A DNA stretch of 7,178 bases, from IMG/VR virus record IMGVR_UViG_2548876941_000009. One strand, 5' to 3'. The stretch is from a virus. Lineage: Duplodnaviria > Heunggongvirae > Uroviricota > Caudoviricetes. Position numbers and translations under genes: made by a program. This document shows, in pieces, positions 1-7,178 of the stretch (positions within the stretch are counted from its first letter, which is position 1; each line of letters starts with the position of its first letter). Below the pieces are notes generated by a model that was given only the letters and a program-made list of their open reading frames with translations, had not been told where the DNA came from and ran no database searches.

Positions 1-354
<354 letters not shown>

Positions 355-429: not shown

Positions 430-503
430 CTCTGTTAAGCGTGAGCTACGTAAAAAATAATTTTTAGTGGGTATATCTGTTCAGAAGAAATCACGTAGCA
501 CAC
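430..503. repeat. 74-bp intergenic repeat, copy A, between the tape measure stop and the next gene
   Basis: Near-identical (71/74 by eye) to 2607-2680 in direct orientation. Contains imperfect inverted-repeat arms GTGAGCTACGT and ACGTAGCACAC separated by about 40 bp of AT-rich spacer. Confidence 0.85.
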
Positions 504-517
504 GGATATATAAGAAA

Positions 518-2599
518 TCATTCTTCCTCTGGATAGCTTGAACTTAAGAGCATATCCTGCGTGAACTGGTCATTAGCTGATTGATTGAAAGTAAAGAAAG
601 CTGGTTCATCCGGTCTAACAGTTGCTTCACCAGTGATATTAACTGACAAGGGCTTCTTAGCTTCTGCCGTTAAAGCATCTACCTTGCGTGATAGTTCACT
701 AATAGTCATTGCAAGTTGAGCATTGCTATTCACAATATCACTCGTAATAGCTGGTGGAGTTGATTGTGTGTTATTTACGAAGTTATTCATCGGTTCTTGG
801 AAACCAGCAATTTTATCAGCTGCACTATTAAACCAACCTTTCACATCATCCATAGTAAATACTGGCTTAAGTCCAGACTCTTTAGCCAGCTCTGGTAATT
901 TAGCTTGTGCTTCCATTCGTTCAGGTGTAGAAGCTAATCTCTCATAACCTGCATAGATAGCACTACCAGCTAATAGCATATTCATAGGGTTTAGTCTTGA
1001 TGGTTTCCCATTCTTTCTATTCACGTTATCCGCTGTAGTATCAGCGACCTGACCTAATCTTGTGATAGCAGTCATAAGCCCGTAAATACTTCTGGTTACA
1101 CCAACAACTTTATTTACAGCAATAACACCAGCCAAGACTTTTAAACTATTAATCAAGCCAGAACCTAAAGCATCAACAACTTTCTTTTGTTCATCGGTTA
1201 AACCACGATAAGCTAATGTCACCTCATCAAAGAACGCTCTCACCCTGTAACTAATATCAGTCAGGTTATCGATACCATGCGACATATCGCTCATCAAGCC
1301 ACCAAGAGATTCACCAAGACTTTTACCACTCCCACCTAAACTATTCAAAAGCGTTGTCAAGCTTCGTGTAAAATCTTGCAGACCATTTTCAGAACCTCTG
1401 AAGATACTATCAAGCGTGGTATTCCAAGAGTTTTTCAAGTTCCCTAGTTGTGCCTGTGTACTTTCTGAAATAGCTTTCCAGCCACCTTTAGCGGTGATTT
1501 GTTTATTCAGTTCCTGAGTGACCTTCTGAAGAGTATCGGCAGATTTTAAAGCCCCCTTCTTCATGGCATCAAATAGCTCTTGTTCATTCCTTCCGGTTGC
1601 TTTAGCGAATACCTGAACCATACCAGGAACAGCTTCAGCTAATTGCCCCTTAAGCTCTTCAGCCATAATCTGACCCTTACCAGCCATCTGTGATAATGCT
1701 GTTAATGCTCGCTTAATCTCTTCTTCACTTCTCCCCATCAGACGAGAATAGCCAATCATATTTCTAAAAAGTTCTTCAGAACCTTGAATGCCCATAGACC
1801 CTCTAGCTGAAGCACCGAAACCAGCAAACTGTGATTGCAGCTCAGCGATATCTAAACCCGTTGTTTGAGCTAATGACTTTGTGAACTCTTTTACTTGACC
1901 TGCATCTTTATCAAATACGAAATCAATTGAACGTTCAGCACTTGCACGTTGAAGGCCAATTTCCATAATCTTCTGATAACTGGCTAATACAGCCTGAAAG
2001 CTGATAAATGCACCTGCTGCTTTAATTGCTGCTGAAGACAAATTATCAAGACTGCTAGCTGCTCTGTCACCATTAATGCTGGTGGATGTATGACCTCTGG
2101 CTTTAGTGATTGCCTCTCGTACACTTGAATTTAGTTTAGCAAGGGCTTCATTAAACTTGGTGTTATCCATCTGACCAGCTTTACTACTTAATGCGTAAAA
2201 CTGACTCTTAATGTATTTCTCGACAATTGGGTTAAGACCTTTCAGTTTGGTCATATTAGCTGAGTAAGCCGCTGTGATTGCTCTGCTTCCGCTAATTCGT
2301 GGCTGTCTTGGTTGTCTAAGTGGCTTTAAAGTATCCTCAATTTCCGTTTTAATCTTAAACGCTTTAGTGTTTTTAAAACGCTGCTCAATCTTGGAAACAG
2401 TTTTATCGACATTTCTTTCCATGACCTTGAGAGAATCATTTAAAGGCGTAGGATTAACTTTAAAAGCTTTATTTAGTCGTTTTTCAATTCTTGATGCGAT
2501 TTGCATCGTTTGTTTCTCGGCTTTTTCCAAGCCTTTTAAAACTTTCTGAGAGTTAAAACTTAACTCAATCAGGAAGTCATCAACTTTAAACTGTGCCAT
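518..2599 (-). CDS. Phage tail tape measure protein (693 aa)
   Basis: Long ORF with strong SD AGAGGTGA 5 nt upstream of the ATG. Central segment GKGQIMAEELKGQLAEAVPGMVQVFAKATGRNEQELFDAMKKGALKSADTL matches the conserved tape-measure domain signature (GQLxExxPG ... G-rich flank) as I recall it. Coiled-coil-like N-terminus and Gly/Ser/Leu-rich C-terminal half typical of TMPs. Confidence 0.75.
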   Translation of the reverse strand: MAQFKVDDFLIELSFNSQKVLKGLEKAEKQTMQIASRIEKRLNKAFKVNPTPLNDSLKVMERNVDKTVSKIEQRFKNTKAFKIKTEIEDTLKPLRQPRQPRISGSRAITAAYSANMTKLKGLNPIVEKYIKSQFYALSSKAGQMDNTKFNEALAKLNSSVREAITKARGHTSTSINGDRAASSLDNLSSAAIKAAGAFISFQAVLASYQKIMEIGLQRASAERSIDFVFDKDAGQVKEFTKSLAQTTGLDIAELQSQFAGFGASARGSMGIQGSEELFRNMIGYSRLMGRSEEEIKRALTALSQMAGKGQIMAEELKGQLAEAVPGMVQVFAKATGRNEQELFDAMKKGALKSADTLQKVTQELNKQITAKGGWKAISESTQAQLGNLKNSWNTTLDSIFRGSENGLQDFTRSLTTLLNSLGGSGKSLGESLGGLMSDMSHGIDNLTDISYRVRAFFDEVTLAYRGLTDEQKKVVDALGSGLINSLKVLAGVIAVNKVVGVTRSIYGLMTAITRLGQVADTTADNVNRKNGKPSRLNPMNMLLAGSAIYAGYERLASTPERMEAQAKLPELAKESGLKPVFTMDDVKGWFNSAADKIAGFQEPMNNFVNNTQSTPPAITSDIVNSNAQLAMTISELSRKVDALTAEAKKPLSVNITGEATVRPDEPAFFTFNQSANDQFTQDMLLSSSYPEEE

Positions 2600-2606
2600 T
2601 ATTCAC

Positions 2607-2680
2607 CTCTGTTAAGCGTGAGCTACGTAAAAAATAATTTTTGGTGGGTATATCTGTTCAGAAGATTTCACGTAGCACAC
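2607..2680. repeat. 74-bp intergenic repeat, copy B, immediately upstream of the tape measure start codon
   Basis: Direct repeat of 430-503 with 3 mismatches (A/G once, AA/TT once). Ends 8 nt before the tape measure ATG and is preceded by a terminator-like hairpin at 2685-2726. Confidence 0.85.
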
Positions 2681-2684
2681 ATAC

Positions 2685-2726
2685 AAAAAAGGGAGAAACT
2701 ACCGATATCACTCGATAATCTCTCCC
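2685..2726 (-). terminator. Putative intrinsic terminator downstream of the 70-aa gene
   Basis: On the minus strand, stem GGGAGA/UCUCCC (plus 2721-2726 pairing 2691-2696) is followed by a U6 run (plus 2685-2690 are A6). The loop is long (24 nt) but contains an internal UAUC/GAUA pairing. Confidence 0.45.
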
Positions 2727-3690: not shown

Positions 3691-3730
3691 TATTTTTCAC
3701 CTCTTTAGTGTAATTGCTTATTTTCAAATT

Positions 3731-3797
3731 CGTAGAAGCACACTCAGCAATCAGAGGTGAAGAGTCTGACTGAACAAGAACCTGCCAAGTGTGCTTT
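3731..3797. promoter_or_regulatory. Long-spaced inverted repeat upstream of the 234-aa gene, with a degenerate match to the 74-bp repeat arm
   Basis: Perfect 9-bp arms AAGCACACT (3736-3744) and AGTGTGCTT (3788-3796) separated by 43 bp. Plus-strand CGTAGAAGCACAC (3731-3743) resembles the CGTAGCACAC arm of the 74-bp repeats. Confidence 0.3.
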
Positions 3798-3806
3798 TAT
3801 GAATTG

Positions 3807-3841
3807 AAAAAAAGCCCTAAACATAATCTGTGAAGGGCTTT
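3807..3841 (-). terminator. Putative intrinsic terminator
   Basis: On the minus strand, stem AAAGCCCU/AGGGCUUU (plus 3834-3841 pairing 3811-3818) with a 15-nt loop, followed by a U-run (plus A-run 3807-3813). Confidence 0.5.
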
Positions 3842-3905
3842 GGAGGTTTGCTTATAACGTTAACGAAGTTTCAGGAAAACTTTCTTTAAAAGCTCTTAAA
3901 GAAAC

Positions 3906-3926
3906 GCCCTAATCATGAGTTAGGGC
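3906..3926 (-). terminator. Second hairpin (GCCCUAA/UUAGGGC, 7-nt loop), possible weak terminator or RNA structural element
   Basis: Perfect 7-bp stem. On the minus strand it is followed by GUUUCUUUAAGAGCUUUU. Shares the GCCCTAA core with the 3811-3841 hairpin. Confidence 0.3.
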
Positions 3927-4103
3927 AAAGCTGTAAAGGATTCAATAATGAATGAACAAGAGTACTTTTTGATATAGCCTATCTAGTGTGGGCTAAATAG
4001 GCCATGACGAAAAGCATTGCACCTTTCCAACTCAAAACAACTATCATTGATGTAGAACGACTAATAGTTTAATTCAAGGAGAATTGCCCTCCCCATACAT
4101 ACA

Positions 4104-4132
4104 ATTATGTCATGCTCAAGGTTGTTTGTCAA
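4104..4132 (-). promoter_or_regulatory. Sigma70-like promoter on the minus strand
   Basis: Read on the minus strand: TTGACA (plus 4127-4132), 17-bp spacer, CATAAT (plus 4104-4109). Predicted start near plus 4097. Confidence 0.4.
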
Positions 4133-4155
4133 CAACTTTTAACAGATTGGTAACA

Positions 4156-4233
4156 TCAATTATTATTTGCGGAGTTACCAACCAGACAGCCAACAAATAG
4201 CCCTAGCAGCGTCCATAATACAATTAACGTCAT
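4156..4233 (-). CDS. Putative 25-aa hydrophobic peptide (MTLIVLWTLLGLFVGCLVGNSANNN)
   Basis: Its ATG overlaps the TAA stop of the 107-aa gene (TAATG, plus 4231-4235), suggesting translational coupling. Single predicted transmembrane-like segment. Absent from the ORF track because it is below the length cutoff. Confidence 0.35.
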   Translation of the reverse strand: MTLIVLWTLLGLFVGCLVGNSANNN

Positions 4234-4556
4234 TAGTGAATCCTCACAGAATCCGCAACCAAATTATTGTCAGCGTACAAAATTGCTATAGCCGCCTTGA
4301 GATATTGTTCAGGGCTAACGCTGTATTTATTCGTTTCTTCGATAACAAGCCTTTTCATGTTTGAGTCGGTAACGGGAAACATAAAACGTGGGTCACCAGT
4401 TTTAATTCCCTGAATAAAATCTTCAATTACTTCTGAGTTCTCAGCCATTAGCTTTAACAGCCTGTCAAAGTCAATACTAATACCTGCATCAGTGAAGCTT
4501 TGCACCATCATAGCAGTGTCGTCATCAACCATAATTCGCATTGGGTAATTGTTCAT
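4233..4556 (-). CDS. Hypothetical acidic protein (107 aa)
   Basis: ORF with SD GAGGA 8 nt upstream of the ATG. Net acidic, including a DDD run near the N-terminus. No family recognised. Confidence 0.65.
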   Translation of the reverse strand: MNNYPMRIMVDDDTAMMVQSFTDAGISIDFDRLLKLMAENSEVIEDFIQGIKTGDPRFMFPVTDSNMKRLVIEETNKYSVSPEQYLKAAIAILYADNNLVADSVRIH

Positions 4557-4612
4557 TTTTAAATTCCTCTAAAACACATCTTAAATCTGCCAAAATAGCC
4601 ATTCCGAGGCCA

Positions 4613-4681
4613 GTAACCATGCGGGTTACAGAGGGAGTGAGACACCTTAGTAATAGGGTTGCTCATCTTTGAGTCTCACTC
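4613..4681. promoter_or_regulatory. Two intergenic hairpin/inverted-repeat elements between the 128-aa and 107-aa genes
   Basis: GTAACC/GGTTAC stem with 5-nt loop (4613-4629). Perfect 9-bp inverted repeat GAGTGAGAC/GTCTCACTC separated by 29 bp (4635-4681). Confidence 0.35.
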
Positions 4682-4693
4682 ATTCTCACAGGC

Positions 4694-5080
4694 TTACACA
4701 GACGCTTTAATCTTGTAGTATTGACTGCGTGATAAGCCGTATTTCTCAGAAATATAACTTTGTGATTGTCCTTTGGTGATTGCATCAATGATTAAATCTT
4801 TATCATATCTGTTACCATTGGCTTTGTGCTTGTCACCATTTTTAATAGAGTTGAAATTATCAATTAATTTAATGGCGTCTTTAAGGTCGTCTTCGTAAGT
4901 ATAATCAAAGCCTCTGATAAACTCGAAATCACCATTATCTTTTTGTGCTCCAGTCCAGATATCAAATCTTGAGGCTAATTGCTGGTGGGTAAACTTGGGC
5001 TTATTGGTTTGTGTTACGTCTTTCCAGACTTTACCGTCAAATCTTACCAGATGGTCTCGATGCTTATAAAAATCATACAT
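4694..5080 (-). CDS. Putative Mor/C-family phage transcriptional activator (128 aa) with C-terminal helix-turn-helix
   Basis: C-terminal DLIIDAITKGQSQSYISEKYGLSRSQYYKIK resembles the Mor C-terminal HTH region of phage Mu as recalled from memory (DLRIWNDFNGRNVSELTTRYGVTFNTVYKAI). Similar size to Mor (about 129 aa). Start ATG overlaps the upstream gene stop (TAATG). Confidence 0.5.
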   Translation of the reverse strand: MYDFYKHRDHLVRFDGKVWKDVTQTNKPKFTHQQLASRFDIWTGAQKDNGDFEFIRGFDYTYEDDLKDAIKLIDNFNSIKNGDKHKANGNRYDKDLIIDAITKGQSQSYISEKYGLSRSQYYKIKASV

Positions 5081-5358
5081 TAAACCTCCATTGCTAATTT
5101 GTGAATTTTGATACTTAGTAATCTTGCTAAATCCAGTCCAAAGGCATTTAGAGCCTTCAGACTATCAAGGTCATCTTGCTTAATCCTGATATGGTGTCTT
5201 GCTGCCTCTAAACGACTATTAAGCAAATCCTGCTCGTTAATATCACGGTTAATTGCAAGCTTCATCACTGCTGAGTGTGGCAGACCTGTAATGTTTTTGA
5301 TTCGGTTAAGTTCGTCAAAGGCTGTCTTTGTAACTCTGGTTAAAGTGTGCTTAGTCAT
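5080..5358 (-). CDS. Hypothetical protein (92 aa)
   Basis: ORF in the operon. Starts 3 nt after the stop of the 110-aa ORF and is translationally coupled to the downstream 128-aa gene. Confidence 0.6.
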   Translation of the reverse strand: MTKHTLTRVTKTAFDELNRIKNITGLPHSAVMKLAINRDINEQDLLNSRLEAARHHIRIKQDDLDSLKALNAFGLDLARLLSIKIHKLAMEV

Positions 5359-5361
5359 TAT

Positions 5362-5694
5362 TTAAAATCCTTCTGCTTGTGCGTACACGTCAAATTCAAA
5401 GTCTGGCTCACTGGTTGTAAGACTGATATTACCAACGGTAATATGATGCTCGACAATACCAATTAACTTTGCGCACATCACAGCAAGTAATGCGCAATAG
5501 GCATCGCTTGGTAACTCATGGCTTAACCTGGTTGCCTGACGCTGGAGATGGTTTGTCACGGTAGCTGAGTTAATTTCATCAAGATTCTTTAGAAGATAAA
5601 ACAATTTCTTGTTGTATTTTGGGTGCCCCCTCACTTCTGCAAAATCCGATAAGAATGTCGTCAAGCTTGCTCGGTAATTGCTCGTAGCTGTCAA
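5362..5694 (-). CDS. Hypothetical protein (up to 110 aa), start codon uncertain
   Basis: Longest frame begins with TTG at 5694 with no obvious SD, and overlaps the 3' end of the 112-aa ORF by about 116 nt. The frame is needed to fill 5362-5578 in an otherwise tightly packed operon. Confidence 0.45.
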   Translation of the reverse strand: MTATSNYRASLTTFLSDFAEVRGHPKYNKKLFYLLKNLDEINSATVTNHLQRQATRLSHELPSDAYCALLAVMCAKLIGIVEHHITVGNISLTTSEPDFEFDVYAQAEGF

Positions 5695-5917
5695 AGTTAG
5701 CCAGATAATTCTTGATGCTGTTCTTTGTTGTTTTGCGTACTGACATATAACGACTCCTCGGTGTAATTGCCCGAATTACTTCGTCAATGCCTTTGCGTTC
5801 TGCTCTGGTGAACTTAGGTGCTTCGTGGCTGGTGGGGGAGTTTGTGTAAGCGTAGGAATTGTATCTGTTACGTTGTCTCGATGCCTGAAGCATCGCTCTA
5901 AATTCTGCATCTCTCAT
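5579..5917 (-). CDS. Hypothetical basic protein (112 aa), first gene of the operon
   Basis: ATG at 5917 preceded by AAGGA 8-9 nt upstream and by a promoter about 45 nt upstream. Arg/Lys-rich N-terminal half. Confidence 0.6.
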   Translation of the reverse strand: MRDAEFRAMLQASRQRNRYNSYAYTNSPTSHEAPKFTRAERKGIDEVIRAITPRSRYMSVRKTTKNSIKNYLANFDSYEQLPSKLDDILIGFCRSEGAPKIQQEIVLSSKES

Positions 5918-5967: not shown

Positions 5968-5996
5968 ATACTAGCATTTTCAAAGGCTAATGTCAA
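5968..5996 (-). promoter_or_regulatory. Sigma70-like promoter for the minus-strand operon
   Basis: Read on the minus strand: TTGACA (plus 5991-5996), 17-bp spacer, TAGTAT (plus 5968-5973). Confidence 0.5.
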
Positions 5997-6002
5997 GCAT
6001 TT

Positions 6003-6032
6003 TTAACAATTTAGTAACATCTGTGGTATAAT
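6003..6032 (+). promoter_or_regulatory. Divergent sigma70-like promoter with extended -10
   Basis: TTAACA (6003-6008), 18-bp spacer, TGgTATAAT (6024-6032). Sits back-to-back with the minus-strand promoter, the two -35 elements 6 bp apart. Confidence 0.55.
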
Positions 6033-6054
6033 GGGTTTATGGGGAGAGTAAAAT

Positions 6055-6399
6055 ATGAGGCGTGGCTATCGAGAATGGCCGCATGGTTATTGCATTGCAC
6101 ACAGACCTCTTCAATCGCTCTGTAACGAGTTAAACGGCCTCTTCAGGTCAACTATAAGGTCAGGTACTTTTTTGTGCCAGAATGCGATTGAGAGCGTCCT
6201 ACAAGGAAAGCTAATGGTAAACCTCCCTGAACTGGGGTCACCTGATGTATGGGCTGGTGGAGGTATTGGACTGATTGCAGGTCTGCTACTCCGCTATTTC
6301 ATCGTCAGAGTGTTTATCGTGTTCAGATTGTTTGGTCGTGAATGGTCATTTGACCTCAAGGACAGGACCCGAACAGACAACCACACAGAACCCCGTTAA
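6055..6399 (+). CDS. Hypothetical protein (114 aa) with one hydrophobic, transmembrane-like segment; could instead be the 5' part of a non-coding transcript
   Basis: ATG at 6055 preceded by GGAG(AG) at about 8 nt and by the strong promoter at 6003-6032. Sequence has the hydrophobic stretch GGGIGLIAGLLLRYFIVRVFIVFRLF but odd composition (Cys/Trp/His/Arg-rich N-terminus). Confidence 0.4.
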   Translation: MRRGYREWPHGYCIAHRPLQSLCNELNGLFRSTIRSGTFLCQNAIESVLQGKLMVNLPELGSPDVWAGGGIGLIAGLLLRYFIVRVFIVFRLFGREWSFDLKDRTRTDNHTEPR

Positions 6400-6900: not shown

Positions 6901-7081
6901 TTGTTTAAAGGCACATCAAACGATACATTTTGTTGATTTTGGTCAAAGACAAAAGCATTGACAAAATGGTAAGATTGTTCACATGACCTTACTTAACAGA
7001 CTTTTAAGAGCTTTTGAAACAGCCTGTTTAACAAGGTCACTACCTACGGTTCTTCGTTTCCCTTCTTTCTAGGTAGTCATC

Positions 7082-7135
7082 TGTTAAGTATCTTTTCAGA
7101 TATCTCTTTGTTAAGTATCTTTTCAGATATCTCTT
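7082..7135. repeat. Perfect tandem duplication of a 27-bp unit, TGTTAAGTATCTTTTCAGATATCTCTT, with palindromic core AGATATCT
   Basis: Units at 7082-7108 and 7109-7135 are identical. A partial third start, CTGTTAAG, follows at 7143-7150. Confidence 0.8.
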
Positions 7136-7178
7136 ACACTCACTGTTAAGATGTAACACACCTTCGGTATATCGTTAC

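Follow-up and report, generated by a model that had tools for sequence, protein, structure and literature searches.

The Mor and C proteins of phage Mu activate sigma-70 promoters that lack a −35 element by binding a dyad centered near position −43.5. In the crystal structure of Mor, the N-terminal half forms a helical dimerization domain that is joined to the helix-turn-helix (HTH) by a β-strand linker. An HTH also serves regulation in the small serine recombinases: Tn3 resolvase acts as a repressor via its HTH domain, and in the Tn3 family, tnpA and tnpR are repressed when resolvase binds res with this type of HTH. Here, we analyze a 128-residue protein, for which we use the working name p128, encoded by an open reading frame (ORF) at 4694..5080 on the minus strand of a 7,178-nucleotide stretch of DNA (IMG/VR virus record IMGVR_UViG_2548876941_000009; the whole stretch is called the window). 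An initial annotation, made from the sequence alone, had taken p128 for a Mor/C-like activator acting on 74-bp repeat elements. The window proved to be a decaying copy of an ~11-kb integrative chromosomal island and not a phage.

When p128 is compared with these systems, it is like Mu Mor and C in its size of about 130 residues, in having the HTH in its last third with a glycine-containing linker before it, and in being encoded late in an early/regulatory operon, but it does not belong to a Mu-like transposable phage. With the small serine recombinases (Tn3/γδ resolvase and Hin), it shares three helices preceded by a short arm that contains Gly/Arg and an S-x-x-x-Y-Y-[KR] recognition helix, as in the resolvase of the island itself; unlike them, it has no catalytic domain, and its HTH sits behind an unrelated N-terminal domain of 78 residues. 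The regulators of phage satellites (AlpA from phage-inducible chromosomal islands, δ/Vis of P4, and Str/Stl of the Staphylococcus aureus pathogenicity islands) offer a further likeness, namely a small DNA-binding protein encoded in a promoter-proximal operon of an ~11-kb island with helper-type structural genes, whereas p128 has no match to Phage_AlpA or Ogr/Delta and the island is a putative satellite. The PLEs (elements similar to phage-inducible chromosomal islands) of Vibrio cholerae, satellites of the virulent myovirus ICP1, resemble the island in having a large serine recombinase, genes that are almost all ORFans, and an apparent tie to a virulent myovirus, which here would be Felix O1-like. 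The two have no genes in common, however, and PLEs are not known to carry homologues of tape measure or Dit proteins.

A resolvase-type helix-turn-helix joined to a novel N-terminal domain

The coding sequence (CDS) of p128 (4694..5080, minus strand) starts with ATG and comprises 128 codons, with a GGAGG ribosome-binding site 4 nt 5′ of the ATG, and its product ends in ...SEKYGLSRSQYYKIKASV. It was delimited from the ORF list, homologues, an AlphaFold2 model, and the ratio of nonsynonymous to synonymous substitution rates (dN/dS), and it is present in RefSeq as a hypothetical protein (WP_130842790.1) at an E. coli locus that is 99.6% identical. We conclude that it is a real gene and not a chance ORF because the reading frame is intact in homologues at 39 to 95% identity and because it is under purifying selection, with a dN/dS of 0.19 relative to the closest diverged copy; relative to the other copies, dS is saturated. 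The family is tiny, with 10 matches among 1.84 billion representatives, and among 5426 complete E. coli genomes, 127 carry the allele of the window. The position of the gene, after a gene for 92 to 97 residues, is constant in island variants at at least four chromosomal sites, and p128 is a core gene of the island. Searches of phage genomes by tblastn with p128, its distant homologue, and the 234-residue neighbor gave no match.

AlphaFold2 modeled p128 with a predicted local distance difference test (pLDDT) score of 79 overall and of 77 to 87 in 10-residue blocks from residue 91 onward. Strands were predicted at residues 2 to 7, 10 to 14, 19 to 21, and 52 to 58 and helices at residues 63 to 76, 94 to 102, 107 to 114, and 118 to 126. 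In the model, a β-rich N-terminal α/β domain (residues 1–78, nt 5080–4847, minus strand) is followed by a linker of low confidence (residues 79–92), a flexible Gly/Lys/Asn/Arg arm with a conserved GDKHKxNGNRY that is disordered at residues 82 to 91, and by a C-terminal three-helix HTH (residues 93–126, nt 4804–4703). No Pfam family matched the N-terminal 80 residues. Three histidines of this domain, His7, His10, and His32, are invariant in the p128 family and form a possible metal site.

The HTH that the initial annotation had read in the C terminus was borne out by the predicted helices at residues 94 to 126 and by weak profile matches. HTH_28 matched all 13 members of the p128 family (best E = 5e-4), HTH_23 matched 9 of the 13, and HTH_7 matched 7 of the 13, all at residues 93 to 127 and all below threshold; for HTH_7, the Pfam gathering score of 23.8 was reached neither by whole p128 (14.7 bits) nor by its C-terminal 48 residues (16.8 bits). 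These matches, weak but consistent, place the HTH in the class found in serine recombinases and transposases (HTH_7/HTH_28/HTH_23). Its nearest relative that could be detected lies in the islands themselves. When the p128 family was aligned by hhalign with five small serine resolvases of the islands, the match was 91.9% (E = 7e-7) and covered resolvase residues 154 to 186 of 190, exactly the C-terminal HTH. The recognition helices are alike both in p128 (SRSQYYKIK versus SKATYYRLAK of the resolvase) and in its distant homologue (VSVRTVQRI versus LSVRTVSRH). A conserved NGNRY precedes helix 1 of p128; the GRP arm of the resolvases lies somewhat further upstream of helix 1. No match to the Resolvase family (PF00239) was obtained with p128; it is without the N-terminal catalytic domain that carries the active-site serine, while the true resolvase of the island scored 149 bits.

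Structural matches to the C-terminal part, all weak, were to Tn3 resolvase, Bin3, a γδ/Hin chimera, and IstA; a PDB profile search by sequence returned noise only, and the BFVD collection of viral structures yielded one full-length match (A0A6G5Y9G6, 127 residues, E = 1.3e-5). No match of p128 to Phage_AlpA, Ogr/Delta, or other named regulator families was found in Pfam, PHROGs, or NCBIfam, and across p128 and its neighbors the scans of these three databases and PADLOC were significant only for TMP_3, Dit_like, and the recombinases. Taken together, p128 is almost certainly a DNA-binding protein, and it joins a resolvase-type DNA-binding domain to a novel N-terminal domain.

Membership of p128 in the Mu Mor/C family of activators is not supported. 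The Pfam Mor family (PF08765) was unmatched at E ≤ 1 in the window protein and in all 13 family members, while the positive controls taken from the Mu genome scored 113.9 bits (Mor) and 116.1 bits (C) against a cutoff of 24.9. Of the initial annotation, the HTH is thus supported and the Mor/C family is not. The agreement in size does hold, at 128 residues versus 129 for Mor and 140 for C, and the HTH sits at residues 93 to 126 in p128 versus 91 to 118 in Mor/C. Moreover, Mu Mor and C gave the same weak HTH_28/HTH_23 matches at the same relative position, which very likely explains why p128 had been likened to Mor in the first place. In hhalign, the p128 family matched a Mor/C alignment at 60.9% (E = 8.2e-5) over 92 columns that take in the helix and the glycine-rich linker before the HTH, a weaker match than the 91.9% obtained with the resolvase HTH, and profile comparison against the single sequences gave 0.6% (Mor) and 10% (C). 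We read this as hinting at a relationship within the HTH superfamily and not as evidence of membership. The predicted N-terminal domain of p128 is β-rich, unlike the helical dimerization domain of Mor. In addition, p128 ends in ...KIKASV, 2 to 3 residues past helix 3 and without a basic tail, whereas the Mor consensus continues after the HTH with a basic extension (...RRMRRLKYRQYQPxLF). Structure searches with p128 did not retrieve Mor.

Candidate binding sites and the role of p128

We hypothesize, with a probability of roughly 45%, that p128 is a two-domain, sequence-specific DNA-binding protein restricted to a small family of Escherichia islands and that it regulates island transcription. 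The genes for the 184-residue protein, the 92-residue protein, and p128 would form one transcription unit under a sigma-70 promoter. Through its arm and HTH, p128 would bind short half-sites in the control regions of the island, its N-terminal domain would supply oligomerization or contact to a partner, and binding would regulate island transcription by either activation or repression, much as a small phage or transposon HTH regulator works. The best candidate for the site is CTGTTAA(G).

This motif is six-fold enriched in the window, where CTGTTAA occurs 9 times versus 1.5 ± 1.1 expected (0 of 300 simulations), and 7 of the 9 occurrences lie in the noncoding DNA that makes up 29% of the window. 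Sites are found at 432, 2609, 4139 (minus strand), 5949, 6993 (minus strand), 7081, and 7143. The motif is present in every leftward promoter region. At the operon promoter, it lies shortly after the −10; at 4132..4104, it adjoins the −35; and each of the two copies of the repeat element has it at the 3′ end. A cluster is found at 6990–7150, a noncoding region on the resolvase side of the island in which CTGTTAAG-type half-sites are arranged in inverted pairs. CTGTTAA is probably the half-site of some island DNA-binding protein, and for a resolvase-type HTH, CTGTTAA(G) is a better candidate half-site than the dyads of the repeat element.

Several observations weigh against this reading. Every HTH profile stayed below its curated threshold in each member of the p128 family (best 20.5 bits versus a cutoff of 25). 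The small resolvase, the 92-residue protein, or the 184-residue protein could just as well own the CTGTTAA sites, and island variants with the 322-residue type of first gene lack CTGTTAA at the operon promoter although p128 is present. Finally, the L003 variant, found in five complete genomes, has an unrelated 71-residue ORF and remnants of an HNH endonuclease in place of p128 (L003 19500–20050) and keeps the rest of the island, including the tail genes and the repeat element.

The repeats to which p128 had been assigned are indeed present, as two copies of 85 nt each that are 91% identical. The copy between the tape measure and Dit-like genes (430..514, minus strand) is universal, being found in 9 of the 9 island loci examined, while the copy 5′ of the tape measure gene (2607..2691, minus strand), directly after the terminator at 2691–2726, occurs in only some island variants. 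The element is present in 461 of 5426 complete E. coli genomes (~8.5%). Read on the gene strand, it consists of GCTACGTGA, about 22 nt, ATACCCAC, an A-rich segment, TAnnnT, TT, ACGTAGCTCAC, and GCTTAACAGAG. The TAnnnT is conserved (TATTTT/TAGAAT/TAATTT) and there is no conserved −35; upstream lies a palindromic CTACGT(G/A)(A/G), and two CTACGT dyads flank the promoter-like core, the upstream dyad standing ~47 bp before a start site that is a guess. The element thus looks like a promoter with a −10 and without a −35, which would be consistent with an activator-dependent promoter. Two other explanations of the repeat were rejected. Against a copy of a helper promoter, the element was missing from phage records and, by nhmmer and motif search, from the whole Felix O1 genome. 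Against an RNA stem, a long-range pairing of 10 bp could form (z = −3.2) but shows no compensatory changes and is broken in two copies; the element is better read as two DNA dyads.

The comparative data, none of them decisive, do not favor an action of p128 on these 74- to 85-bp elements, because the CTACGT dyads and ATACCCAC are constant while the recognition helix of p128 varies (SRSQYYKIK, SRRQYFYVK, SDRQYYRIK), because the variant without the gene keeps the element, and because the element is missing at the tape measure gene of most variants, where the ribosome-binding site comes directly after the terminator. The terminator directly 5′ of the element copy at the tape measure gene means that this gene needs either its own promoter or read-through. 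Since the tape measure gene of most variants directly follows the terminator, read-through control is a live alternative to activation at the repeats.

A structured spacer after the p128 stop codon (4612..4681, minus strand), recognized by covariation across island loci, bears on that alternative. A 9-bp hairpin lies 14 nt past the stop (arms 4673–4681 and 4635–4643) and is followed by an invariant CCCTCTGTAACCCGCATGG (4634–4612). Pairing was found in 81 of 81 cells versus 23 to 46 of 81 in slid controls, with compensatory changes in 4 pairs across three stem types. The core positions CCCTCTG and CCGCAT of CCCTCTGTAACCCGCATGG are invariant even in the distant island L006, and the motif after the hairpin is identical in islands whose p128 HTHs differ strongly. 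Within it, we take CUCUGUAAC / CCCUCUGUAAC to resemble boxA, GCUCUUUAAC, though the likeness is a short one; a second boxA-like copy, CGCUCUGUAAC / CGCTCTGTAAC, lies in the conserved 5′ untranslated region (UTR) of the rightward transcript. The arrangement suggests a nut-like or processing element. Rfam and tRNA scans gave no matches.

Three other roles for p128 can be weighed against these observations. If p128 were a very distant Mor/C-type activator, it would bind as a dimer to the upstream CTACGTGA dyad of the repeat, whose center is ~47 bp from the guessed start site. Sigma-70 RNA polymerase would thereby be brought to a promoter with a TAnnnT −10 and no −35, and the Dit-like gene would be turned on, together with the tape measure gene in this lineage. 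Its length and HTH position, the equal weak matches of Mor and C to HTH_28/HTH_23, and the 92-column hhalign match would agree with such a role, as would an element that has TAnnnT and an upstream CTACGT palindrome without a conserved −35 and that, at the tape measure gene, stands directly after a terminator. The spacing of 47 bp, however, is only as good as the guessed start, PF08765 is unmatched throughout the 13 members, the modeled N-terminal domain is β-rich rather than helical, and p128 stops short of the basic tail of Mor/C; constant dyads facing a variable recognition helix, and an element that is kept where p128 is gone, also speak against it. We regard this role as quite unlikely. 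A role as an accessory to recombination or replication we consider simply unlikely: here, the resolvase-type domain would bind the sites of the small resolvase or an origin and could control in which direction or when resolution, inversion, or excision takes place, or aid an initiator-like neighbor. The kinship of the p128 HTH to that of the islands' own small resolvase agrees with such a role, these two proteins are the sole ones common to the tail-gene islands and L006, and the inverted CTGTTAAG-type pairs at 6990–7150 lie on the resolvase side; a weak HTH_36 match in the 324-residue form of the first operon gene is the sole hint of what that gene does. Yet the recognition helices of p128 and its cognate resolvase show no consistent co-variation across variants, large serine integrases usually have directionality factors that contact the integrase and not DNA, and island L002 keeps p128 with only a 42-residue HTH fragment in the place of the resolvase.

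The hairpin and boxA-like motif directly 3′ of the p128 gene, with the second boxA-like copy in the rightward 5′ UTR, raise the further thought that p128 takes part in processive antitermination, either loading in a Q-like manner at island promoters or acting with the hairpin-boxA-like element, so that transcription would pass the terminators at 3927..3905 and 2726..2691 and reach the tail genes. Read-through of this kind would be required in most variants, where the tape measure gene follows the terminator without a promoter-like element. But p128 showed no similarity to the Q or N families in the Pfam, PHROGs, and NCBIfam scans, boxA/Nus-type antitermination needs no HTH protein, the likeness to boxA is a slight one, and the hairpin motif stays identical beside strongly different p128 HTHs. 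We hold a part in antitermination to be very improbable. Regulation of island transcription by p128, with CTGTTAA(G) as its candidate site, remains the reading that we prefer.

The operon and neighboring genes

The gene for p128 had been placed last in a four-gene operon with overlapping stop and start codons, immediately before the structural genes. The operon has three genes instead, as the ORFs at 5579–5917 and 5362–5694 are one gene (5362..5917, minus strand), which encodes 184 residues in relatives and is frameshifted here, as revealed by alignment with three intact relatives and by the 555-nt CDSs in RefSeq. It is split into two overlapping ORFs by one additional C within a run of C near 5630 (about 5626–5631), which may reflect either a real pseudogene or a homopolymer sequencing error. 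Depending on the variant, this first gene encodes 184, 322, or 324 residues. The second gene (5080..5358, minus strand) encodes 92 residues, gave a weak DndE-like match only (residues 8–48), and is likely, from its sequence, of the ribbon-helix-helix type. Its stop codon overlaps the p128 start in TAATG, as had been noted, but the junction before it is a 3-nt gap. A sigma-70-type promoter of this leftward operon was predicted by a consensus scan at 5968..5996 (minus strand; TTGACA-17-TAGTAT, preceded by a TG). It adjoins, in divergent orientation, a rightward promoter at 6003–6032, and the intergenic region at these divergent promoters is almost invariant among diverged island variants.

Nor are the structural genes immediate neighbors of p128, for three genes, a promoter, and a terminator intervene before the tape measure gene. 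In order, the p128 gene is followed by the 137-nt structured spacer, the 107-residue gene, a 540-nt spacer, the 234- and 70-residue genes, the terminator, and the tape measure gene. The 107-residue gene (4233..4556, minus strand), identified from the ORF list and the island comparison, is a conserved island gene with a function unassigned by the scans. Beyond it lies a near-consensus sigma-70 promoter (4132..4104, minus strand; TTGACA-17-CATAAT, 11 of 12 matches plus TG), after which an untranslated leader of ~400 nt precedes the 234-residue gene (stretch 3691–4232, minus strand); this leader contains a terminator-like hairpin at 3927..3905 and a 29-nt inverted repeat (3721–3749 / 3783–3811). 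The strong intrinsic terminator that precedes the tape measure gene (2726..2691, minus strand) is found 5′ of that gene in all variants, including L002, L003, L010, and L011.

On the other side of the divergent promoters, the strong rightward promoter (6003–6032, plus strand) leads into a highly conserved 5′ UTR of ~175 nt, which contains CGCTCTGTAAC (6116–6126) and CCGCATGGTTATTG (6079–6092). Behind it, a 61-residue peptide with one hydrophobic helix is encoded at 6214–6399 (plus strand; stretch 6039–6399). By analogy, the layout of UTR and peptide is reminiscent of type I toxins or of small effectors of abortive infection. Further toward the small resolvase, a 27-nt tandem duplication, CTGTTAAGTATCTTTTCAGATATCTCT, occupies window positions 7081–7134; island locus L001 is without it. 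The corresponding region of L001 (26779–27111) lies within a segment of 301 bp that is bounded by perfect inverted repeats of 16 nt, TTAACGGGAGAGAAAG, ~600 bp from the small resolvase gene, and this segment could be invertible or res-like. Also in L001, just beyond the window, a consensus promoter (TTGACG-17-TATAAT) and a clean terminator hairpin stand ~170 nt apart and enclose no ORF (27320–27535), a candidate small RNA of the island.

The island and its possible helper phages

The island was compared across the loci L001, L002, L003, and L007 to L012; L006 is a different island. It is bounded by a large serine recombinase on one side and a small resolvase on the other and has at least four insertion sites (tonB-yciI, yecE, the wrbA-yccJ region, and msyB-lpxL). 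The conserved order runs from the small resolvase through a 58- to 61-residue membrane peptide (divergent from the operon), the 184-/322-residue gene, the 92- to 97-residue gene, p128, the 107-residue gene, an ~235-residue gene, a 62- to 72-residue gene, the terminator, the tape measure gene, the repeat element, and the Dit-like gene to the large serine recombinase. Apart from the tail genes and the recombinases, the island genes are ORFans in the Pfam, PHROG, NCBIfam, and PADLOC scans.

The tape measure gene (518..2599, minus strand) encodes 693 residues that match Pfam TMP_3 (1.7e-18) and PHROG 4036 (1e-77). The protein is 26% identical to ORF67 of Felix O1, with its N and C termini conserved, and its best phage matches are all genomes of ~86 kb, mostly named as Felix O1 relatives. 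The Dit-like tail gene is represented by its 5′ part (56..354, minus strand), recognized by comparison with an intact homologue and interrupted at position 55, where an IS3 element ends. The intact homologue has 257 residues, matches Dit_like (2.6e-19), and shares 73% identity with ORF68 of Felix O1. Window positions 1–55 are the IS3 end, 100% identical to thousands of E. coli copies. We call this copy of the island decaying because the IS3 end truncates the Dit-like gene and the 184-residue gene is frameshifted.

A p128 homologue that is 41% identical was found in the different island L006, also of ~11 kb (3000–15244 of a metagenome contig from ENA), which has a tyrosine integrase, four 23-nt palindromic iterons (7467–7613), and a lambda-E-type major capsid gene. 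L006 and the tail-gene islands have only the p128 family, the small resolvase, and the noncoding motif after the p128 gene in common, which suggests a common backbone with exchangeable structural cargo. From its genes, the island looks like an undescribed satellite, or an anti-phage island, aimed at Felix O1-like virulent phages. A literature search found no satellite or defense island tied to such phages and no island with a tape measure gene; in the paper on Tai tail-assembly inhibition, Felix O1, distal tail proteins, and serine recombinases go unmentioned, and tape measure proteins appear only in the reference list.

A bolder proposal, which we consider rather improbable, is that p128 is the founder of a new regulator family and, with the small resolvase and the hairpin-boxA-like RNA, forms the backbone of undescribed Escherichia phage satellites with swappable helper-derived cargo, a Felix O1-like tape measure and Dit in one lineage and a lambda-E-type capsid in another, which p128 would switch on during infection by the helper.

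By itself, p128 is modest news, being one more small HTH protein with its target unassigned. Its interest comes mainly from the surrounding island, since p128 is one of only two proteins common to two kinds of small integrative island, both of which have a phage structural gene for cargo, and the tail-gene kind is common, to judge from the count of the repeat element in E. coli. Felix O1-like phages are widely used for typing and therapy, and if these islands parasitize or block such phages, p128 would be a natural handle on how the islands are switched on.

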